From assembly GCA_965178125.1 (NCBI GenBank), contig OZ237750.1:124001-188000 (forward strand): a stretch of DNA of 64,000 nt, read 5' to 3'. The position numbers were made by a program, and so were the translations under genes. The notes under the pieces are model-generated. The model was not told the DNA's origin and ran no database searches. It saw only the letters and a list, made by a program, of their open reading frames with translations. Source of the DNA: Bilabrum cf. latius (Eukaryota). Positions 151 to 63,946 of the stretch are shown here, one piece after another (the first letter of the stretch is position 1; each line of letters begins with the position of its first letter).

Positions 151-2321
151 TAGTCAACCCATGGCCTCCTCAAGCAGCTTCACGCACTCTTCGTGACCTC
201 CAAGCCGAGCCGCCTCCAAAGCCGTCACGTCCCCGCCCGCACCACCCACCATGCCCCGAGCCACCAGCGCCCCCGCCAGCTTGCCCAGCCTCAGCCTCCT
301 GGCCAGCTCCATGGGCCTGCCCTCGCTGGCCGCCGCCCACGCCAGGCCCCTGTCCTGCAGGGCCCGGCCCGCGTGCCTCCACCGCACGACGGCCCTGTGC
401 CTGGGCGAAGTAGCCAGCGCCATGCCCCGCCTCCAGTCCGACGCCAGCCTAGTGCCGGGATAGTACCTTTGCAGCATGCCGTGGACGATGGCCGCGGCTT
501 GTGGTCCACTCGTCACACCATCCAGGTCGCGCATGAGCGAGGGCGGCACTCGACTCCCAGAGATCTCTCCAAACCTGAAATCTTCTCCCTCTTTCGGCTT
601 GGAGGCTTCCTCCCAGGCCTTTGCATCCGTTGTGAGCTCTCGCAATGCCTCCTATGCATCTGCCTCTGGCAAGTACGTCCGGAAGCTCCTGAGAGCTTTC
701 TCTTGCTATCCGGCGCTGCCCTGCCCACTCTGGGAGGTACTGCAGAAGCCTTGCGATTTTTGGTGGTACCAGTACACAGCTTGGCTCAAATAGGAGATCA
801 GGGCCTTGGGCGCGTGCGACCCGGCCTGAAGCAGCATGGCCATTGACACTACCTCGGTGGGGTGGTCGCATCGGGTGTCCGCGGGTGTGCGACCGGTGCT
901 GTTGCGCAGGGATAGGTCGGCCCCGGCATTCAATAGAACTTGCTATACTTTAATGGCTGGGTGCGAATACCAATGCACAAGGCTGGCCTGCCGAGTCTGT
1001 ATGAAGTGCAGCAGGGTCCAGCCTGTGGTAGTTGCTGCGTTCGGGTCTGCCCCTGCTGCAAGCAGCAACTGTGCAATGGGAGCCATTGAATCGTGCGTGC
1101 AGAAGTGCAGGGGGACGGATGTTCCCTGCGATAAGAGTATGTATCGCAGAAGAGACGCATTCAAGATGTCGGTAGCACGCCACTGGCAGAGCCGGTTCAT
1201 GTCATAGACCCAAGTTGCGCACCAAATGTTTTTGCAAATGCAGCACTGCTTACCCAAGCTACGAACGCATGATTTGCTCCAGCGTCCAGAAGCCTCTTAA
1301 CAATGCGTTTACTCATGCTTGCGTAGTCTGGAGCGCCCAGGGTGTTGAAGAGCTCCTGAGACATCGGTCTTGAGAATGGGATCGCGCATGCAAGGCAGTT
1401 GCTGATGGAGGCGTTGGCTCCATGTGACAGTAAAAGTTCCACCATTGGAACATCTGAGTTATAACACGCTATATCAAGCGCTGTCGTGGTTGAAGGACCA
1501 CAATTCCGGCGGCCGGAGCCGGGTGACGTGATGAAGTTCGGATCGGCGCCGGAAGCAAGCAAAACGTTGGCAATCACGTGCTTCTGGTGAGCAACCACAG
1601 CTTGTAGAACCGTGAGCTTGACGTCATTTAAGAACTACGGGAGTCCCGACCACCTCTTAGTCGCCTACAGGGAGCATCCGAGAGCTGCGTACTCGTTGAT
1701 GATCTCCTTGACCTCATCGCTCCTATCGGCCACTGAAGCCTTGATGGAGTCAAGCAGGGCTATTGCCTTTTGCCGATCCTTTATATCCAAATCATCCAAA
1801 CGTCTTGACGCTGGTTTGTTAGAGCGATCGCTCATGTCGCTGCTGCTGAGTGCCGCAACGACAGTGGATGATTTGGATTTAAAGATTAAAACCACCTCCG
1901 GACCGGAGGCTCCGGTCCACGAAGAAGATGAAAAATACCACTGGTGGCACTCAGGCTGCCAGTGCCACAACGGCACCCTGCAAGCAGGCTCAGTGGTGCT
2001 GGCATTCAGGCCACGAACGAAGCATCATCTACCCCCGAGTAGATATAGTCAACCCATGGCCTCCTCAAGCAGCTTCACGCACTCTTCGTGACCTCCAAGC
2101 CGAGCCGCCTCCAAAGCCGTCATGTCCCCGCCCGCACCACCCACCATGCCCCGAGCCACCAGCGCCCCCGCCAGCTTGCCCAGCCTCAGCCTCCTGGCCA
2201 GCTCCATGGGCCTGCCCTCGCTGGCCGCCGCCCACGCCAGGCCCCTGTCCTGCAGGGCCCGGCCCGCGTGCCTCCACCGCACGACGGCCCTGTGCCTGGG
2301 CGAAGTAGCCAGCGCCATGCC
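151..2321. repeat. Direct repeat of 276 bp (151-426 and 2046-2321) covering the 3' coding ends of both ankyrin genes
   Basis: One mismatch seen by eye. A further ~30-bp match (ggtgctggcattcaggccacgaacgaagc) lies downstream of both stop codons, at ~109-137 and ~1996-2024. Confidence 0.9.
154..1835 (-). CDS. Ankyrin-repeat protein (paralog 1); one intron at 1126-1253; 5 in-frame TAG read as sense
   Basis: ORF pieces 1665-1976/1197-1598 share a frame, as do 943-1257/706-933/154-645. They are joined by TAG at 1665, 1635, 943, 706 and 652 and by a phase-0 GTAAGC...CGCAG intron. Ankyrin motifs: LLASGADPN, TALDIAC..MVELLLSHGA, GWTLLH, GRTPAD, TALEAARLGGHEECVKLL. Ends at TGA. Confidence 0.8.
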
Positions 2322-4240: not shown

Positions 4241-4430
4241 CAATACTGGTATTTTACAGCTGCGCCGGCTTGGTGCAGTTGAGTTTATCTGCGAGTGCCA
4301 AACTGCCGACCAGGTCACGGTCCTGTCATCGTCTTGCCTGGGCTCTACTAGTAGACCCAGAACTGCACACGTCATCGTGTATTTTCGAGACAGCAAACCA
4401 ACTCACGTATGCTAACCATCATCTTCAACG

Positions 4431-7055
4431 TTATGATCGAGCCCGTCTCCTCTTGTTCGACCTCATGCTCCTCGCTGCCTGCGAGTCCCGCTTCAGGGCA
4501 TCCCTCGAGAGCGGCTCAACGTCGCCGTCCCTGAGGTCGTCGTCATCGTCGTCCGAAGAGCTCTCGCCGCCCATTTTCAGCTCCGGGTCCCTCTGCGCCC
4601 GCTACACCGCGAGAGGCACGCCGCTTGCTCCAGCCAGTGTGCCGGCCCCAGACCCCATCATGCCGCCGGCCTCGGACGACCCCGCCCCCGCACCACCGGC
4701 CGCCGCCTCGGCCCGCCGCTGCTCCTGCAGCTGCCTCAGCCGCTCCGCCGCCTCCCTGCCCTTGGCCGCGGTCGCCGCCGAGGTGCTCTGCGCCGCGCCG
4801 CGCATGGAAACGGAACCGAATCCGGGCCGCTGGGCCCCGTCCGCCAGCGGCCCCCCGTCTGCGTCGCTGACCAGCGTGGGCCCTTCGAACCTCCCGAGCG
4901 TGGGTCCCGCGCCCGACAGGGTGACCCTCAGGTTGTTCTTCCTGGCTTCCTCCAGGTCCTGCTCGGTGACACCAAGAGCACTCACCACGTCGCCACCCCC
5001 ACCCCCGCCGCCGTCGCCTTGCGCGGCGCCGGTTCCGCCAGCACCACCGAAGGATGCACGGCCGCGCGTCGGCGAGGCGGCGCCCGCCCTTGCTGCCGGT
5101 GACAGCGGCGTCCCACCGCCCCCGCCGTAGGAAGCTGGCGATCCCGCGGCCTCAGAGCCCGGCCTCGAGGCCGATGCCCTGGAAGAGGCGCGCCCTCTAG
5201 CGGGCGCAGACACGGCGATGGCTCGGCGGACAACGTCGGGGACGGCCAGCTCCGGGGCCATCGGCGGCTCGTCCTCTTCCTGCCCGAGGGCTCCCGTGAG
5301 AAAGGTTCCGCTGGATTGCGCGGCGCCGCCGCCCTGCTCCATCCGAGTGAGCGCTACCTCCGTTTGTTCCTTGGCGAACTTTCGCAGGTATTCCAGCGCC
5401 TTTGCCAGCGTTCCCTCGCAGGAAGCCAGCGTCCTTGCCTCTTCCGATTCCGTGGGTTTGGCCCTCCTCCCCCTCCTGCTCCTTCCCCTGTGATCCACTG
5501 GACCGCCCTCGGGCCCCTTCGACTCGCCTCCTTCCTCGTCCCCGTCCCCGCCCGCCCCATCGCTATCATCACCATCATCCTCGCTGTCATCCATGGCCGG
5601 CATCAGAGTCAGCACACCCTGCCCCTGCAGCCCGAGGGCCTTCCTGACCCCTTGCAGCTGGGCGTCCAGGTGCTCGATCCCGACCCTGAGCCTGACCAGC
5701 TGCTGCTGGGACCGCTCCACCCTGTCTCTCACCACCGACTTCTCGTCCTCCGCCGCCTCCAGCTGCGACTCGAGCTGCGACACGGCGCTTGCACCAGCAG
5801 CCCCAGCGGCCACGGAGCCGCTGGCACCGGAGCCGAACTTCACAGCGTCCAGATGCTGCTTCAGCATCTGCGCCTCCTCCTTCAGCTCCTCTATCTTCCT
5901 TTGATTGTCCCTGGTGAGCTGCCTCAGCCTGCCCTGCTGGTCCTTCTGCCCTAGGATCTTGCTCGTGACCTCCTTCTCGTCACGCACCCCCGTTGCCTCC
6001 TGGATTCGCCTGAACGCCTCCTCGTACAGCTCCACCTTCTGCCTCACCTTCCTCGTCTCTTCCTCCACCTCGGCTCTCCTCTTCAGCTGCTCCTCCACGG
6101 CGGCCTTCAGCTCCTCCTCCTCCTCGGCAGCGAGGTCCCCAGCGATGGCAGCGGCTCGGTTCAGCCTGGCAGTCTCTCGCTCCCTCGCCAGGCGATTCAT
6201 CTCTGCCCTCGCCTGCGCGTGCATGCGCTTGTCTCTCAGTTCCCTGGCCCTCGCCTCCTTCTCCTCCAGCGCCAGCTGCTTGACCCTCTCGAGCTCAGCG
6301 GAGGCCACGTCCTTGGCGTGAGCCGCTTCCTGGTGCAGCGACTTGAGCTCCTCAAAGTCCCTTTCCTTGCCCTTGAGCGCCCTTTCGATGGCCTGCAGCT
6401 GGCTATCGAACCCCACTCGCTCCTCCCTGAGTCTCCTGACGATCTGGTCGTACGTCTTGTGGATGCTCTGCGCCTCGTTGTGCTTGATCAGGGCCTTGTC
6501 CAGGCGATTCTCGAGCGTGCGGATGCGCTTCGACAAGGGATCGTCCGTGGCCTGAGCCTGCTCTTCTCGAGTCAGCATGGTGAGCTCGCCCCGGAGTTTC
6601 TCGTAGTCTTTACGGAGCTTCGTGGTCTTGAGCTTGACTTGGTCGTACTCGGATCGCTTCTAGACGAGCTTCACTGAAAGCTTGTCCTCATCCCTCCCCG
6701 ACAATTCTCGCCTCTGCTCATCGCGCGCCTCTTTCTGTGCCTTGCCGAGCCCCTCTCGCAGGTGCTTGTTCTTGGAACGTAGCTCGCCAAGTCGTTGCTG
6801 CGCAGCCAAGACTCATACATCGGGACAGAGCTCTAGAGGATGCACATGGGTGAGTAAACGCAGAGCTCACACAACTCTCTGGGCACTGAGCAGCGAACAT
6901 GACTGTGCATCAGTTCTTACCTCGTTAACTCGTTTCCTAGTTTCATACTCGTCGAAAAATGCCCTTCGATCCCCTCGTACAAGGTCAAATTTCTCCTTTA
7001 GCGCCTCCAGTTGTTCTCTTGTAATCTCATCTACTACAGCTCGCTTTGAAGACAT
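4431..7055 (-). CDS. CCDC151: Outer dynein arm docking complex coiled-coil subunit (CCDC151/ODAD3-like); intron 6798-6920
   Basis: Family-typical segments LVRGDRRAFFDE, IRTLENRLDKALIKHNEAQSIHKTYDQIVRRLREERVGFDSQL and YEEAFRRIQEATGV. Phase-0 GTAAG...GCAG intron. TAG at 6660 and 4602 is read through to a DDDD..SRDALKRDSQ tail and TAA at 4431. Confidence 0.8.
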
Positions 7056-7202: not shown

Positions 7203-10200
7203 ATGGCGGCAGCTGGTGGTGCGGCTACTGAATCCAAGTCATCTAGTATGGGGTCTGCAGGGGACTCATTGCTCGGCGAAGCGATTGGAGCGCCTGTGGT
7301 GCCCCCTGTTGAAATCCAGGTATCCAGCGGCGAAGTCGTGACGCTCACGACAGAAGAGCTGTCCGACGATCCGGCTGAACTAATCGGTTTTCTTGAAAGT
7401 GAAAATGCTGCCATGAACGCGTGGTACCAAGTCGGTGTGAGTCCCGTCGGCAGCAGTGGCCGTGCAATGTGGCTTGCTTTAAGTGTGTTCACCTCACAAG
7501 CTGGCCCACGTTTGCTTTGATTCGTTCTAATTATTGTTATTATTCCAACTGCAGGTTATGTACTACCGGATGGGGAAGCCAAAGAGCGCCATTGAAGTCA
7601 TGCAAGCAGCGCTCAAGAGAGCACGGCAAGACAAGCGGGGAGCCACTGACAGCAAGAATTTCGCTATTGCGTAGATTAATGCCGCGGTAGCCGCGCTGCG
7701 CATCGAGCCGGTGTTCACTGGAGACGGTGCCGAAGTCAGGCTCTCCGGCGTGCCCCGCTTCAACGAGACGACCTAGTACCTGCACGAAGTCCGCGCCCAC
7801 TCGGCCAACACCGGCGAGTCGCTCCTGAACGCGATCAGCGCCATCCGAATCCTCGTGCAGGCCAAGTACTTTGCCGCGATCCAGCCGGCGGACGGCGACG
7901 ATCCTTCGAACGCGGAGGTGCAGCAGGAGCTCCGCAAGGCCAAGCTGGCGGGCCGCAGGGGGCTCTCCGCCCCACTGGCCCTCCGCCGGCGCTTCGGGGC
8001 GATGATGACCCGCAACGGGGACATGCGCAAGTTCATCGGGCAGGTGAGACAGGCCTTCCACCTCTCCAACCAGCAGTTCTCAGAGGCCGTCAGGGCGAGG
8101 GCCATCCGCGATATCCTCACGGAGGGCTCGGCCGTGTCCCAGGATACAGTGGCGGCCATCGAGCAGGCCGACAGGACCAACGTGCTGGACCGGCACAAGG
8201 AGACCCAGGTCCCCACCAACTCGGCCAAGCTTGACGACAGGGTGGCCAGCGAGACCAAGGCAACCGTGAGGAGGCTCCTGGACCCGCAGCAGCCCGTCCT
8301 CGTGGCGGCCGTGCTGGGCGAAGCCACGGCACTGTACCTCATGGGGGCCTTCCCCCAGGCACGGGCGATCTTCGCCGCGGCGATTCGCAGGGAACCTTCG
8401 CTGCCGGCCTCCGTGAGGGTGGGTCTGGGAATGACGCTGCTGGGCATGGGCCACCGGCAGGCCGCGCTGCAGGCCTTCAGCCGGGCGCTGCAGCTGGACA
8501 ACAACAACACGGCGGCGCTGACGGGCCACGCTGTGCTGAGCGAGCTCTCGGCAGACTCGGCGAGCGGCCGGCAGCAGGCCAGGTCCAAGACGATGGCTCT
8601 GGCGCTCCTGCACAGGGCGCACGACATCGACTCCACGTGTCCCGCGGCACTGCTGCACCTGGCCAGGACCTCGTTCTTCGACTGGCACAGGGGTCACGCA
8701 GCCTCCTCGTCTTCCTCGTCGTCGTCATCCGCGGCGGCGTCTAGCTTTGGGTCCCACGGGAAGCAGCCCCTCTCTGCGCAGCTCAGGAAGAGCGCGCCCT
8801 ACTTGTATCTCTCGGGGCGGCCCGACCCGCCGCTGAGGAAGGGCGAGCTGCTGCGGCTGGTGCGGGGCGGATCCTCGAGGGCCGGAGAGTCTTCCGCTGC
8901 CGCCTCTGGGGGGCAGAAGGAGGAGGAGGCCATCTTGGTGAGGGTGAACACCAGGAACCCGGAGCAGGGGCCGCCCGCCGTGCACCCTTCCCTGCGATCC
9001 GACGCGTTCGAGGGGACAGCGGAGCTTGAGGGGCACGTCAGGGTGCGCCTGCAGCAGCCGGTCGGTGCCTCTGGGGGCGGGTGGAGGCTCTACAGGCGCG
9101 ACTACACTAACAGCGGCAACCTGGCAAAGCACGCCGCCAGCGCCACCACCAACCCACGCACGCGCGCCGAGGCACTGTACCTGTGCGCCCGTGCCAAGCA
9201 CGCCAAGGGCCAGTACGCCGAGGCGGCGCGGGACTACGAGGCGGCGACCAAGCAGCGTCCTGCCATGGCCGTGGCCCACATGGGCCAGGGGCAGTGCCTC
9301 ATAGCGACTGGGAGCAACACGGCCGGCCGCCAGTGCATCTAGAAGGCGCTTCGAGCCGCCCCCGACTCCCCCGAGGCCCTCAAGCTGATGGCCACCATCC
9401 TTGAGGTCGAAAACAAGAAAGATCAGGCGCTCAGGTGCGCCAGACGGGCCACCGAGGTCGCCGCCAGGGACCCCGACGCCTGGCTCGGCCTCGCCATCAT
9501 GCTGCAGAAGAGCCCCGTGGAGAGGAACTGCAAGCTGGCCAGGGCCGCCTACCGCAGGGCCGCTCGCCTCATGGTGGAGGACGAGGACAGGTGGGGCCAC
9601 CCCCCTCCGGAGCTGCTGCTGAACATCGCCGCCCTCTTGCACCGGGAGGGCGACTTCGCGGGCGCCGAGGACCTGTACAGAGAGACGCAGGAGCTGGTGC
9701 AGACCGAGCTGCTGCCCCTGGCGAGCGACGAGGTGTACGGTTCCACCAAGGCGGCGCAGGCCGCTGCCTTCAGTCCGAGGCTCGGACTGACGTGCACGTA
9801 CAACCTCGCGCGCCTGAAGGAAGACACGGGCGACAAGGAGGAGGCAAAGGCCAGGTACACGGAGATTGCGGCGCTGTACCCGCTCTACCTCCCCGCCCAG
9901 ATGAGGCTGGCAGCCATGGCCCGCGCCGAGGGCAAGCTGGACGAGGCCGCGGGCATCCTGCGAGCGGCCGTCGACCGCGCCAGGCAGCCTGGCCCTAGGC
10001 GGACCGCCAAGCGAGTGCCCGGCCAGCGCAACGGCGCTCCTCTGGACGAGGACGCTCGGGACGCTCTGGTGATGCTCTCTGCGCTCGAGGCGCAGCGAGG
10101 CAGTCGCAGGGAGGTGGTTGAAGGGCTGCTGGCCGAGGTGGCGGAGGGCATGACGGACAGGGGCAACCGCAGGGAACAGTGTGCTCGGCTGCTCTCCGCC

Positions 10201-12186
10201 GCGGGGTTCCTGGACCGGCTGCACCGCGCCACGGACCCGCACAAGCGGGATAGGGCCCTGCGAAAGGTCTTTGACGCCTACAAGGACATCATGCGGGCGG
10301 CTCCAGGCTCCTTGCCGGCTGCGCAGGGCCTGGGCGTGGTGCTGGCGGAGCAGGGGAGGCTCGACCGGGCCAGGGAGGTGTTTGTGATGGTGCGCGAGAT
10401 GGCCGGCGGCGCGCCCGGAGCATCCAAGGGTCTGCTTTGGAGCGCGGATGCCTCGGCCTGCGTGAACCTCGCTCACGTCCTCGTGGCGCAAGGGCAGCAC
10501 GAGAGGGCGGCGCAGCTGTACAGCCACGCGCTTCGGGCGCCCGGCAGTGTGTTTGCAGCGGACAAGGAGCACAGGGTCAAGTGCCGCCTGTGGCTCGCGC
10601 GCGCCCGTGCCGAGCTGTCGCAGTGGAAGCAGGCCGTTGAGGTGACCCAGGCTGCTCTGGAGGAGGCGCCCGAGAGGGACGACCTGGCCTTCAACCACTC
10701 TCTGGTGCGAGCGGAGGGCGCCATCGTTGTCATGAAGCGGCCGCCCGAGGTTGGCTCCGTGAAAGAGAAGGAGGACGCGATCGCTGACCTGGAGTCTAGC
10801 CTGAAGGCCTTCCAAGAACTGCTTGTCCGCTGCAGGGAGCAGGAGGAGAGGTACAGGAGGTGGGAGGAGGCAAAGGACAAGAGGGGCCAGCGGGCCATGG
10901 CAGACGATGATGGGGACGAGGAAGAGAAAGGGAAGGGTGGGGCCGGCTCGAACGGAACTTCTTCTTCGTCCTCTGCTTCCTCTTCGTCCTCGTCAGCGGC
11001 AGCATCCGGAGCGGGAGGCGAAGAAGGCGACCCGGAGGCCTACTTGCTGTCGGACACGCCCCCCGACCGCCCCACCATCTCCATCTCGACCGTTGAGGAG
11101 CTCGCCCAGAAGATCGAGACCGGTGTGCTGCCCAAGGCCAAGAAGAGGCTGTCCAAGGCCCGCAAGGAGGCCGAGCGAAGGCAGAGAGAGAGGGACGCGA
11201 GGCGCGCGGTGCAGCAGGAGGCCATCTAGGAGAAGGAGCTGAAGGAGTCGGAGAAGAAGGAGGCAGAGGAAAAGAGGTAGAAGGACGCGGAGCAGCACGC
11301 CAAGCAGCTTCAGGACGAGCTGCTGCAGATCAGGCAGCAGCAGGTCGCTGCCCTGGAGCAGCAGCAGAGGAGGAAAGAGGCAGCCAAGATGCGCAAGAAA
11401 ACCAACCAACGGGCCGGCGGGAGGGCGAGGCCGGGTGAGGACGCGTACGACGTCAATGCGGACTTGGAGGGCACCCTGGCTGCGGCCTATCACTACGACG
11501 AGGACTTCGACATCCAGGGGGCCCTGGAGCTGGGCGAGACGCTGGAGGCGATCTTCGGGGCGGAGGTGCAGGCGCTCCTCGAACAGGCCGAGGGAATAAG
11601 CGCCGGGGCTGGGGCTGCGGCTGGGGATGGGGATGGGGGTGGGGGTGTGGATGGTGAGGGTTCGGGGGACTTGGGGGCGGTGTTTGAGGGTGTGGGGGAG
11701 CTGCCCGAGGCCAAGGAGGGCGAGGTGATGATGGAGGGACAGGCGCAGGTGGTGGAGGGGGCGGGAGGCGGGGCGGACGGGAATGCGGTGGACCCCGAGG
11801 TGGAGGGCATGTTGGCGGAGGCTTTTGGGGGCCTCGGTGGGGACAGCGACGATGAAGAGGGAGAGGATGGGGGTGGGGGCGGAGCTGATGCTGGGGCCGG
11901 GGCCGGGGCCGGTGCTGGTGCTGGTGCTGGTGCTGGATCTGGTGGCTCTGGCAGCATCGGGGGGAAGAAGCGGCCTCGCAGCACGATTGAGGATGACGAG
12001 GACGAGGACGAAGACGAAGGAGCAGACAAGGAGGGAGGCAATGGTGAAGCGCCTGCTGGCGGCACCGCGGTTGCAACTGGATCCGAGGTTGCAACCGGCG
12101 AGGTAGATGGGCAGGGCGCCGGTGCGGCTGGGGATGCTGATTCCAGCGGGGAATCGGCTGCGAAACGACCGAGGGTGGACAGCTGA
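7203..12186 (+). CDS. CTR9: PAF1 complex TPR subunit CTR9; intron 7437-7554; 5 in-frame TAG
   Basis: N-terminus EVVTL..EEL.DDP.ELI.FL.SE.A.MNAW...V.YY..GK matches the Ctr9 pattern. Also multiple TPRs, PPELLLNIAAL, TYNLARL, AAQGLGVVLAE..VF..VRE, VNLAHV and an acidic tail. TAG at 7672, 7774, 9340, 11227 and 11278, all in one frame. Ends at TGA. Confidence 0.85.
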
Positions 12187-49424: not shown

Positions 49425-52400
49425 ATGCCGGAAACAGTACTGAGCAGGCAGCAGAAAATGGCTGAGTACCAGGCGAAGCTTTAGGATATGAGGAGAGCGC
49501 ACAGACTCTCAACCGACATCGTAACGTCTGTCCGACAGAGGTACAAGGAGCCCAGAGGGTGGTTTTTGCGCCACTGCTCAGCAGATTCTGGTAAAATGAC
49601 TCAGGATGGATGGAGAATCGCTTTACAAGACCTGATTGGTGCGCGAGAGAGCGATGCCGCTTCTCTGTTCAGGCAAGGCACCAGCTCTACCGAAATGACC
49701 TGGCGATAGTTTCAGCGCTTCCTACATGCAGCAGAGCAGATGTCATCGACTAGTTTCCCCGGCTAGCTTCTTTCTGAGCAAGAGGTGAAGCGCAAGGCGG
49801 TTCTCAAGGATGACACTGAAACCAGCCTGCCAACTCGGGAGGCCGCGCAGCCCACATCAAAGCACGCCAAAGTTATGAGACTGCAGCGACAGCTTGTAGA
49901 TAGCTTTCTCAAAAGCGGATCGAAGGGAGCTGGCTCTGTTCGGCTGACATAGGCATTTCGGAGGATGGATTCGGACGCCTCTGGAGACGTTAGCCACGAT
50001 GAGATCAGATCATTTTTGGTAGGAGACAACGGTCTTGGGCTGCGGCTGGAAGACGACGTGATAGATGGTGTTTGGGAGGCGATGGACAGCCAGGCCAAGG
50101 GAAGCGTCTCGTTCCAAGATTTCATGGACGTCGTGCAGCCAGTGCGAGAGCTGCTGGACCGTGAATCCAAGGGCGACTCTGTCGTCGAGGACCAGCAAGT
50201 CGAGATGCTGGAGGCTATGGGCAGCGCATCAACCCCTAGGCTAGAGCGAACGTTCTGGAGAGTGGGGAGCGCAGAGCAAAAGGAGGGACACCAGGCGCTC
50301 GTGACCGTCGCGACCAAGGAGGGTAAGACTCGCACAGGCGCGCGCTCCCGCGTGCCTGGCGCTTCCCTATCGCAGGAAGAAACAAAGGAAGCACAGGAGC
50401 GCTGGAAACTATCCATGCCAGCTTCAAAGGAGAAAGCGAGGAGCCGACTCAGGGAGATAGTGTCGTACGGAGCCGGAGCAGTTGCTGGGAGCGAGACCCG
50501 AGAGGCGAGCGGCGCCAATGCTCAAGGTCGTCTGTCGCTGGCTGCGCATCCAGAAGAAAACCACCACTCTGCAAAGCATGCAGACGTGGTGGGGGCATCT
50601 AATGCGCACTTGAGGCGCGTTGCATCGCAGGCTATCTCCAACCAGTACTAGAAGAGGCTGTTGCTATTAGGCAAAGCAGCCACTGGGAGTGGTCCGGAAG
50701 GCCCCGGCCCTGCGGCCGCCACCGTTTCAAATCTAACCCAAGGAGAGGTGCAGCGGCAGTAGCAGTGGCAAGACAATCTGCAAAAGCAGACGGCCGCGGC
50801 CGTTGGTTCTGAAGCGGCGGCGAAGCACATGCAGGAAAAGAGGCGACATCTGGCTCCACCGAACGCGAGGATGCGGGCACTGGGGCACTCCTCCGAGGCG
50901 TTTGTCCCCCCTCCTTCGCGAGAGGGCGATCCCAGGCTTTTGGGGGCATCAATAATGCCTCCGAATGCATCCATGGCAGAATCCGCCGAGGTGCCTGTGC
51001 AGAGCAGGAGTCTGCTGCTTGGGAGCGTCCGAGTCGGACTGCAGCACGGTGGTGACCCGTCGGTTTCGGGCTCATCACGGGGGCTCAGGGACAGCGTCGG
51101 AAGGTTGGCACCGCTCGTGTTTCCCCCCAGTTCAACGAGCCGGACTGCCAGCGAGACAGGTCTCATGCAAGGCGCCGGAAACGGTGCTCACGCGAGCGCG
51201 GGGGATGCAGGTGCAGCAAGCTACTAGATCTAGCACAGCAAAAAGATGGTCGCCCGGCGGCGGGCCTCCTCCCGACCCGAGGGCCCCTCCAGCGGTGCCC
51301 TCCGCAACGCAGCGTGCGGCGGCCGGGCGATGCTGACCAAGGCGACCACCACCAGGACCCGCAGTACTTCGCACTCGTCACACCGACCGGGCCGGTTCGG
51401 TGTGGCGGGGCACCCGGACGCTGTCGTTCGCAAGCGGCCCCCATCTGCTGCCCTGCCCTCCTCCACCGCATCGTATGCATCCTGGAATGGCGGTTCATCC
51501 CACGAAGCAAGAGATGGAAACAGCTCACGCGGGATAGCCACGGCCCGATCGGCCCGATCCGACGGCACGGTGGCTGGATCTGCGTTGCGGCCCCTAGTGC
51601 GCGACACGTTGCGCGCGTCGATGCAGGGCCCTGCGGTGCAGCGATCGTCGCAGCCAGCGAGCCACAGCCCCTCGCACGCAATGTTTGGGGATTTCATGCC
51701 AGGGAACAACGACAACATGCCAGGGAACATCGACGCCATGAGGCTGGAAAGAAGCGCAAGGTCGGGACCCAGACCCAGTTCCAGCAGGCGAGACGCGTGG
51801 GTTGCAACCGGCGGCAGCCGCCTCCTCGGGAGCAACCGACCCATGGCCCGCACCGCTGCGGCCCGCATCATCGGAGGCAGGCGCGACTCGGAGTCTGTCA
51901 CCCGCCAACCGGTCCGAGGGTAGCCTGTGCCCCGCCCCATGCTCGGGAACGGCATCGCCATCGCAAGCCGACCCAATCGACGGGGGCGCGGTTCCCTGGC
52001 GCCAGGCGTGTCCGACTCTTTCTCTAGGCTGGCCATGGGGGACGTGGCAGAGTATGACGGCAAAGACGTGGCGCATTACAGGCTTGCGGGTGTGACGAGT
52101 GTGCTCGCCGGCCGCACGGCCAGGGACGCGGCGGAGGGAGCCAAGCCCCTCCACTGCACCTACCGCACGGAGTCGGGCGATGCGGCCGCGCTCGGGCTGC
52201 AGAGCCGTGCGGGCTTGCAGCACCAGGGTTTGGCGCACACCTTGGTGGGGGCCGCTGATGGCGGCGTGACGAGTGCGGGCCTCGGAGATAGGCGTGGGCG
52301 CACCCAGGGAACACATGCGGCAACGGGAGCGACGGGCATCGCCGTGCACGTGGATTCGGAGCGGAGGAGCAAGCAGATGAAGGGACGGACGCACAGGCAG

Positions 52401-52997
52401 CGCCTCCGCAGGGCACACGAGGATCTTATCCAGGCAGGCATCACGGCTAGAGAGGCAGCCCATCGGCTGGCTGACGTCCGCCGGGTGAGATCGATCGTGA
52501 GGCAGCGGCTCGACTATAGAAAGAGGGTGTTCGAGTCGGGCCAGATTGTCGTGCACGTGGTGCCGGCGGGCAGCGGGATGCGGGGCTTCGTGAGCCGCGA
52601 GGAGGTGGGCAAAGAGGCGGTCGAGACGCAGGACCGGTTGCTCCTCCGGGGGAACAAGCGGGCCGTGGGAGCCGCTAGCCGGCCGTTCGCAGCATTGAAC
52701 TCTGACCCAGAGACCGGCGGGGCAGGCGGGCCCATGGCTGGAAGCGTCAAAGCAGGCAGTGGGGCGCCCAGGCACCGGCCTCGATCCGTGCCTGCCACCC
52801 CTCACACCGCGGTGAGAAACGGCGCCATCGTTCCTGACGCGCAGCTGAGGCAGGCAACCATCCGAGAGAGGCTGCGTGCAGGGGAAGTAGCCACGCTGGA
52901 GGGGCAGGCGAGGCCGCTGGCGGCTCGCAACTTCCCCGTGTGTGATGCATCCATGTTCGTGAGTGACACCTTCGCGTGGTTTAGGCATGATGGGTAA
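49425..52997 (+). CDS. EF-hand protein with a long low-complexity C-terminal region
   Basis: EF-hand pair L T*AFRRMDSDASGDVSHDEI and MDSQAKGSVSFQDF. Five ORFs in one frame, joined by TAG at 49485, 49707, 49764, 49950, 50649, 50760, 51225, 51231 and 51921. Ends at TAA. Confidence 0.75.
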
Positions 52998-53511: not shown

Positions 53512-56500
53512 TCAATTCTCCGACGCTGCCGCCATCCGGGCCGCCAGAGCCATGGCGGCCTGCCCCAGCGCGCCGCCTGCACCCCCGTGCAGTGCACCCG
53601 ACACAGCCCTCGCCAGCTCACCCAGCCCCGCGCCTTGTTCCCTGGCCGCCGCCCGCACCGCCACCACGTGCTCGTCCAGCTCCGATTGGTCCCCCACGTG
53701 AGGCATCGCATCCAGCGCCGCCACCTGCATCGAGCCCAGCCCCACCAGCCACTGCACCCGGCGAGCCGCCGTGGCCGCGGCCCACTCGTCACTCGCGTCG
53801 ATGCCCTGGAGCGCACTCGTCAGGTGCTGCACCAGGCACAGCGCGCCCAGCGGCTTCAGCGCACTCGCCGCACTGCGACACACTTCGCCGAGGAAAGCGC
53901 CCGCATCGGCAACATCGGTCCCGCTCGATCGCCTGGCCTGAGCCGCGCTCGCCAGGGCAGCAGCAACTCCGGCCGCGGTCGCAATTGCGCTCCCCACTTC
54001 AAGTAGGTCCATCACAGCAGCGTCCACCTCGGCCCCAGCGCCACCGTCAACGCCACCTGCGAGCCTGCCTTCGGCCGCTACCCGTCCCACGCTCTGCATG
54101 CGGCCCAGCAGCGCGGCATCAAGCGACTCGGAGCCGGGGAACAGCTGCAAGGACTCCATCAGCGAAGATAGACCCAGCTTGGCCACATCTCTATCCGACT
54201 AGCCAAGCCGTCCGACAGCAGCTGCAGCCCCATCGCCAGCCCCATCGCCAGCCCCACCCCCAGACCCATCGCCCGAACTAGCACTGGCACCGTCAGTGGC
54301 CGCGGCAGCAACAGGCCCGCTGCCCGCCGCACTCGTCACACCACCGGCGGCACTCACCACGGCTCGCGCTGCGTCCTGCCCCGCCCTCCGGATCGCCTCG
54401 CACGCCTCTTCCGCCGCACGTCGGATGGCCGCCACGCCCTCTCTGGAGGCCTGCTCCAGCCGACCCTCGGCGCCGCGCACCCCGGCGCTGACCCGGTCCT
54501 GCGCCGTGGAGCCTGCGCTCTTTAGATTGCCGGCTGCCTGCGCCGCGGATTGCTTGAGCTTCTTGCCGGCCTCCTGGGCGGCCCTCTGTATGGCCGCACT
54601 GGCCTGCTTGGACATCTCCGCCGCGGCCCCGCCCAGGCCCGGGACCAGCTGCTCCTCCACCACCTTGCGGAACATGTCCAGCGCGGCGCCGCGCACGGCC
54701 TCCTCCGCCCCGCGGCGGGCGCCCTCTTCCGCAGCGGCCGCCGACTCGGGCTCCCGCTCCGCCCCCGCCGCCAGCGCGCCCATCCGAGCCGCCAAGGCGA
54801 CGGCCTTGCCACCGTCCGTCCCGGCCGCCAGACCGGTTGCAATCGCCTGGGGAACAACGTCCCTCACGGCCGCCTGAATGGCTTCGGTGCTCACTGCGTG
54901 GCCCTGCGCGGACGCCCCGGCCCCGGCCCCAGCCCCGGCCCCAGCCCCAGCCCCTGCCCCAACACCAGCCGCAGCCATCTCGCTGATGGCAGCCTCCATG
55001 CGCTTCATCTGGTCCGCGATGGCCCTCTACTGCTGGTTGAGGCCCACCACGGCCTTGCCCAGCGCCTGCATCATCGTCCTGACCCTCGCACTCGCCTGCT
55101 CCTGCTGCCTCGCCACCGTCTCCGTGACTCGCATCTCCATGGCGGATAGCTGCCCGGGCAGCACGTCCAGCATCGACTCACGGACTGCGGTGAGCTGCTG
55201 CTCGCTCGCCACAGAGGCGGAGGAAGCGCTCCTCTGCATCTACGTGGGAACAGCTGCTCCCGTTGTTCCCTGGATCCCCGATTCCCCGCCTTCTTCCGCC
55301 TCCTCCTCTTCTCGCAGCCCTCTTGCCTGAGCAGCTCGCGATTCAGACCCCTGCTCAAGGCCGGTGCTGCCACCAGGCGCCGCTTTGCGCTTCGGTTTCT
55401 CGGAGGCACCTGCCCCGCTGGATGGGCCGTCGGGTGCCTGGGCGGGGGCACCAGGCCCAGCTCCGGTATTTCCATGTGACGAGTGCTTGAGCAGCGCGGA
55501 GGGAGACAGCGCGGCGTCGGTGGGCGCCTTGCGAGACGGCGTGAGCTGCTGCTAGGATTCGGAGCCATCCTGGTGTGACGAGTGCTCTTCACCGTCCTCG
55601 CTCTCGTCAGCGTCCGCGTCCTCTTCCCCATCGCCGTCTTCTTCCTCGTCAGCCCCATCCTACTCAGGTTGAGCACCCCCTGCACCTGCTCCTGCTCCTG
55701 CCCTTGCTCCTCCTGCAGCACCCGCACCCGCAGCAGAGTCCAGGTCCAGCGCCTCCCCCACGGATTCCAGAACCTGCACGCCGCGCACATCAGAGCTGCC
55801 ACCCGTCGCATCGGCGTCTGAACCGCCGGTACCCGCCCCGCCACCCGCCGCCTCTTCCGATTCCGAGTCGGACGGCACCAGGTGCCTCACGCGCGTCAGG
55901 CGGCAGGCACCCGCAGACAGCACAGCAACGTCGCCCGACGGCGCTGCCGGTTCCGCAGGCGCCGCGCAAATCAGGTCCCCGGACGCCTGTGGGTCGATCC
56001 TCACCGCTCGTTGCACAGCCGCCATGCCGGCGTGCTCCCCCCCGTCTTGTTGTTCCCCAGCGCCCCCACCTCCGATGAGCTTGGGCAGCGCGCACACCTG
56101 CAGCTGCACCACCGACTGCTGCTCCGCTGCTCCCCGCCTGCCCCCCGCCAGCAGAAGCACCCCCGGCTCGCCCGAACGACTGGCCGTCTGAGCAGACATG
56201 GTGTAGGACCTGTCGCTCTGATCCGATCCCGGTTGTTCCCTGGCGGGCGAGCCCACCACCACGACGGAACCGGGCACGGCCAGGCAGGTTTCGGGCTCCG
56301 GGGTGTCGAGCTTGGGCGGCACTACGATGACCAGCAGAACGGTTTCGTTGTTCCCCAGCCCCAGGGCCAGGGTCGCGGGCTGTGGCCGGGCGCCTCCCGC
56401 GGTTCCGCTGGACGCAGGTGTGACGAATGCGAGGCCCGCGGCGCCTTGGTGCAGTGTGAGGGGCTAGCTGTCCCTGACCCACTCGCTGAGGCGCCGCGCA

Positions 56501-58359
56501 GCGTCAGCCATAGGTTCCGCAGCGGCGCTGGGATCCATGCCTGTGGCTGCAGCCCGCAGCGACTCCACTGCTCCCCTCAGGTGGCTGGCCGCACCTGTTG
56601 GTGACCCGCTGGCCATGACCCACCTGGCCACGGGCAGGGCGGGGACAGAGGCAGGCACCTTGTCCAGGGGAGGAACCGCGAGAGGTTCCGTTCCGCGCGG
56701 CGCCGCGCCCACGTTGAGGACGTGGGTCTCCGACATGAAGGCAATCTCGGTTCCGCTGCCGTGCGCGGCGCCACCAGCGGGAGGGAGGCATAGCACGGCC
56801 GTACGAGCCGCGGCCAGCAGGTGCAGCCCAGACAACAACGGGTCCACAGCTCCCATGCGGTTGCAGCCGGGGGAACATGCAGAGCTTGCCAGACTCATGG
56901 CAACCGGCACGCCGACGCTCGCAGCCTCCGTCGTGACCTTGGGCATGGGCGGGAAGGGGAGGAAGCGCCAGGGCGCGGCGCCGGCTGCGGAACCTCCCTA
57001 CTCCGGGAAGGTCGCCGCCACGTCACCGCTGCGGTACTCGGCTCCCAGCGACGGGTCGATCCGCACGGGGTGCGGAACCTGGGCGCGCGGCGCCGCCGCC
57101 ATGCGGCCGTCGACGTGCAAGAGAAGCACGCCAGCGGCGGTTGCAACCGCAAGCATGGCCCGAGGCAGCCCCGCGGCGTGGCCCGCACTCGTCATCCAGT
57201 GCACCCTAGCGGCGCCGCGCATCGATAGCGGAACCTGCGCGTCCCCCGCCTCGTCCAGCGGCTCCGAATCGTCGTCGTCCTCCTCGGGACCGCCCGTCCC
57301 ACCAGAGGCCGTGCCCCTGCCGCCGCTGGCCCTTCCCGATTTGCTGCCCGTGCCGCCGCCGCCCTCCCCCCCCTCCGCCACCGCGCCGGCGCCGGTGCCC
57401 AGCCTGAAGGCGAGGATCTGCCTGGCCGCGGGGGCCGCGTGGGTCCTCGTGGGCGCCACGGCGAACACCCGGATTCTGATTCCGGATCCCTCTCCCATCC
57501 GGCCCGCGCTGACGGCCAGCAGCTGCAGGCACGCCGCCTCGTTCCCGGCCTTGTGCCCTACAAAGCACCTCGCGGCGGTCGCTGGCCTGACCCCCTTGAG
57601 GGGGGGGGACAGGCACAGGTCCTCGATCCTAGGCCCCCCCCTGCACTCCTGCAGGAGTGACGAGTGCTTGGCCGAGACGGCCGTGCTCGCCTCTGCCACT
57701 CGGACGTACTGGTGCGGGTGCTCGCCTTCCGGAGAGGCACCTGCTCCGGCCCCGCTGGTCGCAGATGCGCTCGCTCCGGCGGCCTCGATCGCGACTGCGA
57801 CCAGACTGCCAGCCCTCGAGACGAGCCTGCCCTGCGCCCTGCAGCCCGTTTTGCCTGCCGACGGATCCGCTGGCTGCGGCCGGCGCGGAATGAATTTCGT
57901 CTTGCACACGGTGCCCGACGTGGCCTCGCTCACAATTGGTGCAGAGTCGCTTCCCGACAGCGAAACAGCCTGGGCGACCACGGGTTTGCAGCCCGTCCCT
58001 GTCCTGGGCTACAGTGCGCTCATTGGAATCGCGCCCGGTGCTGTCATAACTACCGGTTGACCAGCTTGCAATGAGCCAGCTGTGCTGGGCAAGCCCCGGC
58101 CCGGCACACCTCCAGACTACAAAGGAGAGCTGGAGGACATGTGGCCCGCCTTTGCTGTTAGTGGTGACTTTGCTTTTAGTGCGGCAAGCATTGCAGACGG
58201 TTTTGCGGCTGCCGGCGCAGGTGAAGGTGGCAACATGCCGTGCTGCTGCGGTGCAGACGCCAAGTTCCCCTACATTCCGCCGTACGAATGGGATACGACT
58301 CCCCCATTCTGTGTCTACGGCTACTACGGATAAATTCCTGGAAATTGCGGCTGTGACAT
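53512..58359 (-). CDS. EDC4: EDC4/Ge-1/VARICOSE-like mRNA decapping scaffold
   Basis: Six ORFs in one frame, separated only by TAG. Q/P-rich N-terminus, degenerate beta-propeller-like region and coiled coil. The C-terminal ALCLVQHLTSAL...RRVQWL resembles the EDC4 C-terminal motif. Ends at TGA. Family call is by eye. Confidence 0.55.
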
Positions 58360-58634
58360 TACTCAGAGCTCCAGCTTGGTTGGATATAAGATTCTCGAAG
58401 GGTTGTTACGGAACTGATGTTGCGCGGCGCCTATTTGTCTGTAGGGTGCTGTTGGGCAAAAATCGCTTAAATGTGATTCCTGTGAATTTAATCAGATTCC
58501 TGCAAAATTCTGGTAGTGTGCTATATTATATTCAACGGCATCCCCCAAGGCTCATTAAGCATCAGCCCAGTTCAGGTCCTAACAGCCTAAGCTCGGCTCT
58601 TTTCAGCAACCAGAGAAAAGGATAACCAGTCAAC

Positions 58635-60399
<1,765 letters not shown>

Positions 60400-61085: not shown

Positions 61086-63946
61086 TCACTGCGGCTTGAG
61101 CATCGTAGGCGCAAGCCGCCGCTTCTTCTTCTTGGGCCCAGCCTTTGCCGGGATTGGCTTCGGCTTCGGAGGTGGCATGGTCGCTGCAGACGCCTCTGCG
61201 GCCTTGGCAGTGCCACCAGCCTCTGCCACGTGCTTCTGGATTGCCCCAGAGGCTGCCGCTACAGCACCTGACGATCCGGATGATGAAGAGGCCGAAGAGG
61301 CTGGCACGCCCGAGCCCGAGGCGCTGTCCATGGCCGCATTCAGCGATGCCACGGCCTATGCAGCCCCCGAGGCGCTCACAGTACTATGGGTGCTGGCAGC
61401 AGCAGACTCAGCCGCACCACATCCTCCACCACCACCTCCCGTTTCCTCCGCGGGCCGCTCCCTCTTCTGACCCGCAATCGCGCCCGGGGATCCCTTGGAT
61501 TTGGAGCCCGATGATTTCGCCTTTGCTTTCGCCTTGGCCTTGGCCGCCTTGCTCCGCCTCTCCCGCTCCGCCCTCTCCTCCTGCCTCGCCCTCTAGCTCT
61601 CCACCCTAAGCACGCGAGACAGCGGGCCCGGCAGGTCCGACACCTCGAGAGGTGCCCCCAGCGTGAGCTGCAGCGGCCCGGCATCGGCGCCGCGCGATCC
61701 AAGTTCCGCAAGCAGGCACAGGGTGACGTATCCATCCACGCTGGCGACCGCCAGCAGTCCACCGTCGGGCGCCCACGCAATGTCGCAAATCGTGTCGAGG
61801 TGGGTGCCGGCGATCCGGGCCACGGGTGAGGCTCTGTCGCTGACCCACACCTGCACCTCGGAGGCGGTTGCAACCGCCCAGGCCATCCGGTACGGCAGCG
61901 AAAAAGGAAGGCCGTCCCGCGTGCCGAAGCCGGGATCGGACCCGGGACTCGATCCGTCTGAATCGGCCGCCTTGAGGAGCGCGGGGCAGCACCGCACGAC
62001 CACAGCGGCAGAGGCGCTCCCCACGGGCAGCAGAACCGACGGGTCCTGCGACCCCGATTGCGGAACCGATTGCGCGGCGCCGGTGGCCGGCAGGAGGCTC
62101 CGTCGGTTGTAGACTGCAACCCCATACCTGTGCTGCTCCACGGGTGGAAGCGCGGGGCCCGACCCATCCATTTCTTTGGAAGCATTGCCCTTGCCCTTAT
62201 CCTTGCCCTCTCCCCCTGATGATGCCCCTGATGCTGCCGCCTGCTCCTGCCCTGTGGACCCGGAGCCCGAAGCAGCCGCGGCGGCAGATGCACCGGACAG
62301 CTCAGCCGCCGGGCACAGGAGGAGGGATGCGTCAGGGGAGAAGGACAGCCGCCGCACGAAGGAGCGGAGGGTGTCGTCGCAGAACAAACGGCGGGTAGCG
62401 GCTGGCTGCGACGATGATGAGGCTGATGATGATGAGGCTGATGATGACGATGGCCTGGTGCCCCCTGCTGGTGCGCCCCCGTGCGCCGCACCCGCGCCAA
62501 CCCCGATGGTGGACAGGCTGGCGATCTCACGCAGGATCCCCCGTCCCGAGTTGCCGGCCTCCGCGGCGCCTGCGGAACCATCCGGAGCCAAAAGTCGGCG
62601 GGAGGCCGCGGCAGCCGTGGCGGCGTGACTCGCCGCGGAGCTCGCGGGGGTATTCCCCCGGGTGGCACCCCCCGCGTAGGGGTCATTCACCTGGTACACC
62701 TTGACGGATCGATCGGCCCCCGCAGTGGCCAGCTGCCCCCCGCACGCCGAGAAGGTGACCCCCTGAAAGAACCCGCGGGACTCCCCGTGGCCCAGTTCCT
62801 TGATGAGGCCGTTGAGGGGCTGCTTCGGCTGCCGCCCCGGCTTGCGCGGCGCCTGGGCGGCCTGCCCCTGGCTCGCATCGAAAAGTGCACGCAACCCCTC
62901 TGCAGCTTTCGCGTCCGACGGAAGCTCTGCGGAACCCGGCGGCGCCGCGCGCACGAGCGCCTCAGCTGAGGTGGTTCCGGGTTGGGGCAGCGGAACCGGC
63001 CCCCAAACCGTTGCGCGGCGGTCGAGGCCGCACGCGGCGAGCAGGATGTGCTGGCTGGGCAGCGGGGGCACAGAGGAGATAGCTGAAGACGAAGAGGGTG
63101 CCGACGACCCCGCCCCCGCACTAGCGGCAGCCGCAGCCGCCGCGGCTGCAGCTGTCGCTTGCTAACCCGACCCTGACTAGTGCGCACCGCCCTCGTGTTC
63201 CCTGGTGCTCCGGATGGGCCCCCAGGCCAGGTCCACGAGCTCGTGACCCAGGGCTGCGGAACCTCCCCGGGCGCCGCGCACTCCCCCCACCCGGGGGCCC
63301 GCGGGCGCCTCTGGCTGCAGCCTCATGGTCAGGAGGCTCTCTGTGCCCTGCACGAACCTCCACCCGAAAGAATGGCCTCCGCCCCCGAGCCAGCCCAGCG
63401 CACCAGCCTAGCCGGCCTCTGACGATTTCTGCGCCTGGGCTGCCGAGGCGGCCGCGGCTCGCTCTCGCTGCTCGAGGGCGCGTCCCGGAGCGAGCACGCA
63501 CACGAAGCCGTCGTCGCCGGCAGAGGCGAGGTACCGGCCACATGGGCTCCACCTGCGAGAGCAACAACACATGCAGGCAAGAGGGTTGCGATTTGTTGTT
63601 GGTTGTGGTAGTCTTCGTGCAGCGAAGGTCGTGTCAGGTGGGCTCACCTGACTGCGTTGATTGCTGGCGGCCGTTGCCCCAATGTCAAATGAACTTTGCT
63701 AAGCTCGCAATGAAACCGAAGTCTGAGTGGAAACTGCTCTGGAGTCGCTGTCTTGAACGTGCCATCGGTCAATCTGGCGGCTGCCGCGCTATCCGTCGCC
63801 TCAGATTCTGCCTTCGTGGTACTGGCTACTCTCCACAGCAATATGCTGCTGTTGTCGCCGACCGTCGCTAACAATGGTATCCTAGGGTGAAAATCGAGGC
63901 CTCTGATAGGACCATTCGCTGCGTGAAATTGGTAAAACAAGCTCAT
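61086..63946 (-). CDS. CHAF1B: Chromatin assembly factor 1 p60 subunit (WD40); intron 63553-63647; may start upstream of the window edge
   Basis: Motifs LDFHP..LATVG, INAVRWSPCGRYLASAGDDG, LFCDDTLRSFVRRLSFSPD and FSLPYRMAWAVAT...DIAWAPDG..LAVASVDGY. The C-terminal KKKRRLAPTML B-domain-like motif lies after TAGs at 63408, 63177, 63162, 61593 and 61356. Ends at TGA. Confidence 0.85.

Follow-up and report, generated by a model that had tools for sequence, protein, structure and literature searches.

Translation of UAG, most likely as glutamine, in a GC-rich and UGA-terminating nuclear locus

Across the 64,000-nucleotide stretch of DNA analysed here (the window), long reading frames are interrupted by TAG and by no other stop codon, which raises the question of whether UAG is translated in this organism and, if so, as which amino acid. 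In 19 frames with open lengths of 275 to 2044 codons, 100 in-frame TAG, 0 TAA and 0 TGA were counted over 17,203 codons; the zeros stem partly from the cutting of frames at TAA and TGA, and the weight rests on the openness of the frames and on homology continuing past the TAGs. No frameshifts were found over the same codons, and from the first ATG onward there were 94 TAG per 16,366 codons. Seventeen of the 19 frames carried TAG, the exceptions being alpha-tubulin and a GH94-like frame, and termination was at TGA (n = 14) or TAA (n = 5), UGA thus being the main terminator of a window with 61% GC. The two other frames of the same DNA, used as off-frame controls, contained 269 and 359 TGA, 123 and 98 TAG, and 51 and 55 TAA. 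Random nonsense would be expected to give 54% TAG, and 100 of 100 gives a log10 P of −26.5. The number of ORFs of at least 800 aa rose from 2 to 11 with TAG as sense, compared with 3 for TAA and 8 for TGA. ORF length alone is not decisive, since taking away the most frequent stop of a GC-rich sequence should by itself yield a value like that for TGA, and the 19 frames were therefore set by homology, GC3 and transcript evidence. An initial annotation of this DNA had proposed that UAG is sense and that UAA and UGA remain stops, from TAG in 16 of 18 genes with 14 TGA and 4 TAA ends, and had held that in-frame TAA as frequent as TAG would speak against this. Its counts are essentially equal to ours, TAA was found 0 times against 100 for TAG, and the proposal is upheld by the frame statistics, by homology across TAGs and by intron-less contigs that keep the TAGs.

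The stretch was present in contigs of seven runs from three studies. Contigs of runs X5, X6 and X7 skipped five introns of 98 to 136 nt with GT..AG or CT..AC ends, all of which were retained in the DNA-like run X1. X5 to X7 are termed transcript-like solely for the missing introns; the label "RNA" is a guess, X5 is marked "probably DNA", and none of the listed runs containing the stretch is on record as RNA. All 18 exonic TAGs of the five genes concerned were covered in the listed pieces, where gaps and other letters at these sites both numbered 0; across 20 kb, no base differences were tabulated in the listed pieces of the four runs compared. One of the five is an ODAD1-family coiled-coil gene (outer dynein arm docking; 4431..6812, minus strand; TAA end) with a 5′ intron at 6798-6920 that was skipped in X5 to X7 contigs and TAGs at 6660-6662 and 4602-4604, both covered with 0 other letters; the earlier label CCDC151 was not confirmed, the Pfam match being to ODAD1_CC (E value, 2e−10). 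CTR9 of the Paf1 complex (7203..12186, plus strand) consists of exon 1 (7203-7436), a GT..AG intron (7437-7554) and exon 2 (7555-12186), has TAGs starting at 7672, 7774, 9340, 11227 and 11278, and ends with TGA; record 7 of X5 joins 7190-7436 to 7555-11596 with 0 differences. Two paralogous minus-strand genes whose family was not recognised (12244-13761 and 14094-15662) are 36% identical, with identical last ∼50 codons, and in X5/X6 contigs their introns (13651-13786 and 15581-15695) were skipped and their 10 exonic TAGs kept. The fifth gene, also of a family not recognised (21227..22738, minus strand; intron 22684-22781), has one TAG (21728-21730), covered by X5/X6 contigs, and a CT..AC joint reflecting minus-strand splicing. 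A plus-strand ORF at 21150-23105 was rejected as an antisense artefact. As introns are absent from these contigs and the 18 TAGs are unchanged, assembly error, splicing-out and editing, three further outcomes that the initial annotation had set against sense UAG, are largely ruled out.

In five genes (CTR9, GH79, TPR, EGF and EF-hand), Pfam or PDB alignments continued through TAGs. The PDB match to CTR9 (E value, 4e−46) aligned residues 513 to 806, which include the TAG at 9340. A PAN and GH79 domain gene (24311..26659, plus strand; Pfam Glyco_hydro_79n; E value, 1e−26; TGA end) carries TAGs starting at 24995, 25847 and 26534, with two more in its leader, and heparanase alignments at residues 366 to 643 and 711 to 769 cross two of its TAGs and extend beyond the last. 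In CAF-1 subunit B (CHAF1B; 61086..63800, minus strand; Pfam Beta-prop_CAF1B_HIR1; 5 to 7 TAG; TGA end), PDB-aligned blocks flank TAGs on both sides in one frame. The TAGs singled out earlier at 26534 and 61593-61595 were present, and conserved sequence 3′ of TAGs, as had been described, could be seen in CTR9 and GH79, where alignments continue through, and in CHAF1B, with blocks on either side. The EF-hand protein gene (49380..52997, plus strand; 9 TAG; TAA end) has a Pfam EF-hand_7 match over residues 188 to 252 that spans a TAG at residue 190. A TPR gene of 2044 codons (27072..33206, minus strand; 5 TAG) encodes an unrecognised N-terminal domain followed by ∼22 TPR_12 units of 42 aa in 126-nt tandem repeats, and an EGF-module surface protein gene of 1900 codons (43158..48860, plus strand; Pfam EGF/hEGF; 7 TAG; TGA end) is built of 135-nt modules.

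The remaining frames are less readily named. A serine-rich minus-strand ORF of 1516 codons (16059..20609; 16 in-frame TAG; TGA end) matched no Pfam family, and a 1616-codon minus-strand ORF (53512..58362; TGA end), its family not recognised, has 13 TAG, three of them in a Q/P-rich N-terminus. The 1109-codon ORF on the plus strand (37517..40846; 11 TAG; TAA end) had been assigned to hAT transposases, an identity that found no backing in Pfam (best E value, 0.037, to a zinc finger) or in the PDB. Alpha-tubulin (58636..60399, plus strand; Pfam Tubulin; ATG at 58636-58638; introns 58639-58926 and 59031-59137; TAA end) is the most codon-biased gene (GC3, 0.91) and lacks TAG. Four minus-strand ankyrin-repeat frames (154-1296, 1197-2024, 2049-3296 and 2935-3897; Pfam Ank; 8 in-frame TAG) are probably two duplicated genes; a 285-nt sequence occurs at both 151-435 and 2046-2330 with 99% identity. 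Two of these frames may be upstream exons, with which the terminators would number 13 TGA and 4 TAA. One TAG falls at a usually hydrophobic ankyrin position, the consensus being judged by eye.

The amino acid meaning of UAG was sought in relatives. A CTR9 protein search gave only three weak matches at near length, and a metagenome search with a single-protein query gave none; a later search with alignment A2 identified the metagenome contig L001, and A2 had no match among genome contigs or viral contigs. L001 is syntenic with the window, keeping the head-to-head ODAD1-CTR9 arrangement (87% and 63% identity, respectively), and its frames in turn carry 7 TAG. In the codon alignment, the partners at 10 TAG sites were Gln at five (four CAG, one CAA), Arg at two, and Lys, Glu and Asn at one each; in the more similar ODAD1, all four were Gln, with CAA opposite the TAG at 6660-6662. 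For comparison, ordinary Gln was conserved at 31 of 49 sites. The likelihood for L001 was best with Gln, followed by Lys at 4.2 ln units below and all other residues at least 10 below. Among relatives' proteins, P0284 (97% identical) has Gln at the CTR9 TAGs 7672 and 7774 and terminates exactly at TAG 9340, P0285 (99% identical) terminates where the window has CAA (its stop type is presumed), and the P0177 site points to Glu. Taken over all pairs of a TAG and a residue (n = 13, from two genes only), Gln was found in seven, Glu and Arg in two each, and Lys and Asn in one each. In the closest comparisons (87 to 99% identity, with P0285 counted and the P0177 site left out), Gln was found in seven of eight. 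From these 13 pairs in two genes, UAG most likely encodes Gln, and at least four relatives, 62 to 99% identical in CTR9, appear to share this code. Neither of two crude composition tests gave a usable signal, the ranking of TAG neighbour residues placing Ile, Pro and Leu first and the per-gene counts placing Ser first. The window's own paralogue pair, at 36% identity, was too distant to show the residue, with TAG partners of Arg, Ala, Val, Thr and Val.

UAG is thus very probably a sense codon in this organism, most likely for Gln, with UGA, the main stop, and UAA as the only terminators. With UAG in conserved coding sequence, kept in spliced transcript-like contigs and aligned with orthologue Gln codons, the code matches the pattern of NCBI table 15 (UAG as Gln, UAA and UGA as stops). 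By analogy with reassignments already described, UAG would be decoded by a tRNA-Gln whose anticodon, CUA, differs in a single base from the CUG of the normal tRNA-Gln, and eRF1 would have lost recognition of this codon. No tRNA genes were found in the window or in L001, Rfam gave no matches, and the eRF1 gene is absent from the 64-kb window. A CUA tRNA thus went unseen in both sequences, and near-cognate readthrough of UAG by tRNA-Gln is described in part of the literature (PMC13192750), so that tRNA-Gln(CUG) might instead misread UAG efficiently in cells whose eRF1 ignores it. This is unlikely, as TAG makes up ∼12% of the Gln codons in the window (94, against 544 CAG and 144 CAA) and occurs in 17 of 19 frames, a high usage for near-cognate reading, and the UAG reassignments described in the relevant sections of two reports carry or postulate a CUA tRNA (PMC5304391, PMC11687900).

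It seems quite improbable that UAG is sense with another meaning (Lys, Glu, Arg or Tyr), or with an ambiguous one, several near-cognate tRNAs decoding it. Six of the 13 partners are Glu, Arg, Lys or Asn, Lys trails Gln by only 4.2 ln units against L001, and in the 42-aa TPR repeat one TAG stands at the position of a Tyr codon (20 TAT, 1 TAG). However, Glu, Lys and Arg are common substitutes for Gln, and Gln, with a share of only ∼4% of residues, accounts for more than half of all partners and for all but one in the closest comparisons. PDB alignments placed TAG at variable positions, opposite Glu in human CTR9 and Thr and Val in heparanase.

A further alternative is a dual codon, with UAG translated in the interior of genes but terminating close to some 3′ ends, like the context-dependent codes of ciliates and trypanosomatids. 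Since only TAA and TGA delimited the frames, a true UAG terminator would go unseen; only the tubulin and GH79 frames have a homology-backed C-terminus, and in four frames the final TAG lies just 41 to 57 codons ahead of TGA or TAA. Nevertheless, no frame in the window requires UAG as a stop, the sequence beyond the final TAG mostly shows the coding pattern of GC3 above GC2 (52 of 63 among all pieces of at least 60 codons), the heparanase alignment passes the last TAG of GH79, and UAG-only lineages are described without dual use in the section concerned (PMC11687900), making a second role as terminator rather doubtful. Finally, TAGs that are not translated as such, being assembly or sequencing errors, pseudogene lesions, small introns or sites of U-to-C editing to CAG, can be dismissed with near certainty: editing would likewise account for Gln in orthologues, but the runs compared show no differences, the TAGs persist in the intron-less contigs, pseudogenes would bear TAA, TGA and frameshifts as well, and relatives carry TAG elsewhere in the same genes.

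With UAG read as Gln, one of the closest precedents is Iotanema spirale (Fornicata), a gut anaerobe in which UAG alone became Gln and UAA and UGA stop, likewise inferred from in-frame UAG at orthologue Gln positions (Panek et al. 2017; PMC5304391). In the part of that report concerned, UAG never terminates and UAA outnumbers UGA as terminator, 104 to 15 (PMC5304391), whereas the window is dominated by TGA. The ciliates Hartmannula sinica and Trochilia petrani (McGowan et al. 2024; PMC11687900) and, as cited there, Protocruzia tuzeti also reassign UAG only, to Gln. In the data given there for these ciliates, UAG provides 18.5 to 31.8% of Gln codons and is found in 78 to 84% of genes (∼12% and 17 of 19 frames in the window), and UAA accounts for >90% of stops at class GC contents of 27 to 54% (PMC11687900), in contrast to the UGA-dominated, 61% GC window. 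The window also contains tandem repeats of some length and an ORF resembling a transposon. Taken together, these features are unusual for a ciliate somatic genome. UAG is similarly uncoupled from UAA in the rhizarian exLh and three TARA phyllopharyngean MAGs, where it encodes Leu, and in Scotinosphaera, where it encodes Ser (as cited in PMC11687900). Both residues fit the window's orthologue pairs poorly, Leu lying 50.9 and Ser 13.5 ln units under Gln. The same codon table is used as "code 15" by crAss-like and other phages, with TAG as Gln (described in part of PMC9523058), but the window, with its spliceosomal introns and its genes for tubulin, CTR9 and CHAF1B, belongs to a eukaryotic nuclear genome. 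Two further codes were rejected from the frame counts. Codes in which all three stops are sense (Condylostoma, Blastocrithidia and Amoebophrya types) do not fit a window with neither TGA nor TAA in frame. The UAR=Gln code (NCBI table 6), used by many ciliates, Hexamita, some ulvophyte algae and an aphelid, shares the change from stop to Gln, but in the window TAA ends 5 frames and never occurs within one (0 of 17,203 codons).

Plant, Naegleria and environmental proteins reached no more than 94% identity to the window's alpha-tubulin, which scored nearly equally against its three best PDB tubulins (884, 881 and 880 bits). The nearest named CTR9 proteins were only 29 to 34% identical, and the ten next-best CTR9 matches looked up include Chlorokybus, Mesostigma, two Salpingoeca and a mite. 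No lineage placement resulted from either set of protein matches. The earlier suggestion that this lineage is unlike the known UAG-only ones agrees with the 61% GC and the TGA-dominated stops but is not proven, and a literature search found no report of such an organism. Nuclear code changes are few, and those that uncouple UAG from UAA are rarer yet; the sections concerned name Iotanema, a single rhizarian, Scotinosphaera and a small number of ciliates (PMC5304391, PMC11687900). An independent origin of UAG as Gln, in a eukaryotic clade of high GC content that has no sequenced and named relatives, is somewhat favored. If true, this would extend the code beyond ciliates and metamonads for the first time and provide the first example with UGA, not UAA, as main terminator. 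The code itself has been described in Iotanema and several ciliates, and it occurs here in a 61% GC genome terminating mainly at UGA. Another origin in such a genome would test AT-pressure codon loss as the driver of UAG capture, and also whether a fixed UAA terminator shields UAA from reassignment. Differences of TAG/CAG or TAG/CAA between near-identical strains would show that the codon is still spreading. Standard gene callers fragment these genes, and genomes and metagenome bins of the clade will be misannotated until table 15 is applied. The relatives' CTR9 proteins in the databases are fragments of this kind, of 65 to 594 aa out of a protein of ∼1,620 aa.

The 64-kb window has a G+C content of 61% and carries eukaryotic nuclear genes for alpha-tubulin (58636-60399), CAF-1 subunit B (CHAF1B; 61086-63800, minus strand), and a PAN- and GH79-domain protein (24311-26659, plus strand). 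A CTR9 gene of the Paf1 complex (7203-12186, plus strand; match to PDB, E value, 4e-46), a gene for an ODAD1-family dynein-docking coiled coil (4431-6812, minus strand), and genes for ankyrin, TPR_12, EGF, and EF-hand proteins were also identified. The coiled-coil gene had been named CCDC151 in the initial annotation; its Pfam match is to the ODAD1_CC family. No tRNA genes or Rfam matches were found in the 64 kb. When exons 1 and 2 of CTR9 were joined, a single open frame starting at the ATG at 7203 was obtained. In the alpha-tubulin gene, intron 1 directly follows the ATG and intron 2 follows codon 35. Alpha-tubulin usually carries an acidic tail with a terminal tyrosine, from which the C-terminus encoded here (...DDDGGFE) differs.

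Nineteen frames were set using homology, GC3, and transcript evidence. Across their 17,203 codons, 100 TAG were found in frame but not one TAA or TGA, compared with 628 TGA, 221 TAG, and 106 TAA in the two alternative frames over the same DNA; counting from the first ATG left 94 TAG in 16,366 codons. Random nonsense mutation predicts a TAG share of 54%, and a yield of 100 TAG from 100 has a log10 P of −26.5. TAG was present in 17 of the 19 frames, the exceptions being tubulin and a GH94-like frame, and GC3 remained above GC2 in 52 of the 63 inter-TAG pieces of at least 60 codons. Frames ended at TGA (n = 14) or TAA (n = 5), although two ankyrin frames overlapping the next frame may be upstream exons, which would leave 13 TGA and 4 TAA ends. 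ORFs of at least 800 amino acids numbered 2 under the standard code, 11 with TAG as sense, 3 with TAA as sense, and 8 with TGA as sense. The gain with TGA is expected from removing the stop that is most frequent in GC-rich sequence, and ORF length is therefore no proof by itself that UAG is sense.

Homology extends over the TAG codons. Heparanase alignments of the GH79 protein (366-643 and 711-769) and a PDB alignment of CTR9 (513-806) run over TAGs, the CHAF1B blocks share one frame on either side of three TAGs, and the TPR_12, EGF, and EF-hand_7 domain matches also extend over them. It is close to certain that UAG is read as a sense codon in Bilabrum cf. latius. The initial annotation had proposed this code from sequence alone, with UAA and UGA as the stops, and its gene and stop counts and named TAG positions proved essentially right.

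Errors in assembly, removal by splicing, and U-to-C editing were excluded as explanations for the TAGs using public sequencing runs. At least part of a 7.9-kb stretch was found in 12 runs, and 70 to 100% of its sampled words were present in seven of these, from three studies. Contigs from four runs (X1, X5, X6, and X7) were aligned to window 4400-24399, and no base differences were tabulated between them and the window. X1 behaves like genomic DNA, may be the run from which the window derives, and keeps all five short segments that are skipped elsewhere. Contigs from X5, X6, and X7 skip 7437-7554 (GT..AG) as well as 6798-6920, 13651-13786, 15581-15695, and 22684-22781 (CT..AC, or GT..AG on the minus strand), and ODAD1 and CTR9 each appear to carry a short 5′-proximal intron. 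The RNA status of these three runs is a tool's guess, with X5 flagged "probably DNA"; their contigs were taken as transcript-derived because introns are absent from them. The listed pieces from X5 to X7 cover all 18 exonic TAGs of five genes, with no other letters and no gaps: two in ODAD1, five in CTR9, five in each of two paralogues, and one in the gene at 21227-22738. A nineteenth TAG, at 13737, is intronic.

Evidence within the window on the amino acid specified was weak, and the meaning of UAG was settled by comparison with relatives. Neighbor-context and composition tests inside the window gave no amino-acid signal for UAG, and in-window paralogues were rejected as a guide because they were too distant. 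In PDB alignments, TAG falls at variable, mostly polar positions; in one copy of a repeat unit, the tyrosine codon TAT is replaced by TAG (20 TAT, 1 TAG). A full HMMER search with CTR9 returned best full-length matches only 33 to 35% identical, plus three short fragments of 65 to 81% identity. A metagenome scan using an alignment of CTR9 fragments as the query identified contig L001 (3,271 nt), which has ODAD1 and CTR9 head to head as in the window and seven in-frame TAG of its own. Codon alignment with the window gave 87% identity for ODAD1 (372 sites) and 63% for CTR9 (457 sites); the divergent gene pair (window 4431-12186; L001 1-3271) is conserved despite the low CTR9 identity. At the 10 sites with TAG on one side, the partners were Gln at five (CAG four times, CAA once) and R, R, K, E, and N at the others, with Gln at all four ODAD1 sites. 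Ordinary Gln was conserved at 31 of 49 sites. Likelihoods computed from the pair's own substitution counts placed Q first, K 4.2 ln units below, and the rest at least 10 below (S, 13.5; Y, 18.9; L, 50.9).

Searching 90% clusters for shorter proteins recovered pieces of a 97 to 99% identical relative. Among the database CTR9 fragments, P0284 has Q at window TAGs 7672 and 7774 and terminates exactly before window TAG 9340, opposite which P0286 has E. P0285 terminates where the window has CAA (Gln), P0177 and P0286 (from a 73% relative) where it has GAG (Glu), and P0126 where it has CGG (Arg); we infer the stop type at these ends. Counting only pairs in which one member shows TAG at the DNA level and the other a residue, 13 were available (Q7, E2, R2, K1, and N1), and Gln makes up ∼4% of residues in the window frames. 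UAG behaves as a Gln codon in orthologue comparisons, and the joint reading of UAG as sense and as Gln is very probable. The code appears to be common to a small clade of relatives, most of which are uncultured.

UAG accounts for ∼12% of Gln codons in the window; tubulin, whose GC3 (0.91) is the highest of any gene, avoids it. The codon would be decoded by a putative tRNA-Gln(CUA), one base change from tRNA-Gln(CUG), by analogy with the origin proposed for Iotanema (PMC5304391), and eRF1 would be blind to UAG. Additional use of UAG as a stop is improbable; the frames were cut at TAA or TGA, which would hide a true UAG stop, but no gene in the window requires one.

Nuclear code changes of this kind have precedents. 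[quoted passage not shown] A ciliate with UAA as Lys and UAG as Glu is reported in PMC10553269. The window's code is the same as that of Iotanema and the UAG=Gln ciliates, whereas stop usage differs: UAA predominates in Iotanema (104/119; PMC5304391) and exceeds 90% of stops in the ciliates (PMC11687900), compared with mainly TGA in the 61% GC window. Reassignment in the Bilabrum cf. latius clade was likely independent of these lineages. A literature search from which most subscription journals were missing turned up no account of UAG being read as Gln in a GC-rich eukaryote outside the ciliates. The genomic setting is unusual, and the finding is well worth genome-wide follow-up.

The window also holds several repeats. 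About 22 tandem 126-nt units (27039-30007; 89 to 96% DNA identity) encode 42-amino-acid TPR_12 repeats within one 2044-codon gene, and their similarity points to recent expansion or gene conversion. A 1900-codon surface-protein gene contains seven or eight 135-nt EGF-like modules (45137-46381; 94 to 98% mutual identity). Within a 1109-codon ORF initially labelled hAT, for which no Pfam or PDB match was found, a 21-nt unit encoding AGAGAAE is repeated about 30 times (39359-40009). In a noncoding satellite (34722-37106), an 85-nt unit is repeated ∼16 to 18 times (34722-36296), and 160-nt repeats come next (36225-37106); apparent ORFs within it are probably repeat artefacts. An S/P/A-rich 651-codon ORF (21150-23105, plus strand) was rejected because it lies antisense to the genuine minus-strand gene at 21227-22738, which is spliced; long spurious ORFs arise easily in this GC-rich DNA under TAG read-through. 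The two paralogues (12244-13761 and 14094-15662) share 36% identity overall, whereas their last ∼50 codons (12244-12400 and 14094-14250; REFVIRPLF...AEVE) are identical, which could reflect gene conversion or an inserted element common to both. Finally, two ankyrin genes have 3′ ends made of a 285-nt duplicate (151-435 and 2046-2330; 99% identity), and the ankyrin region resembles a two-exon gene that was recently duplicated in tandem.
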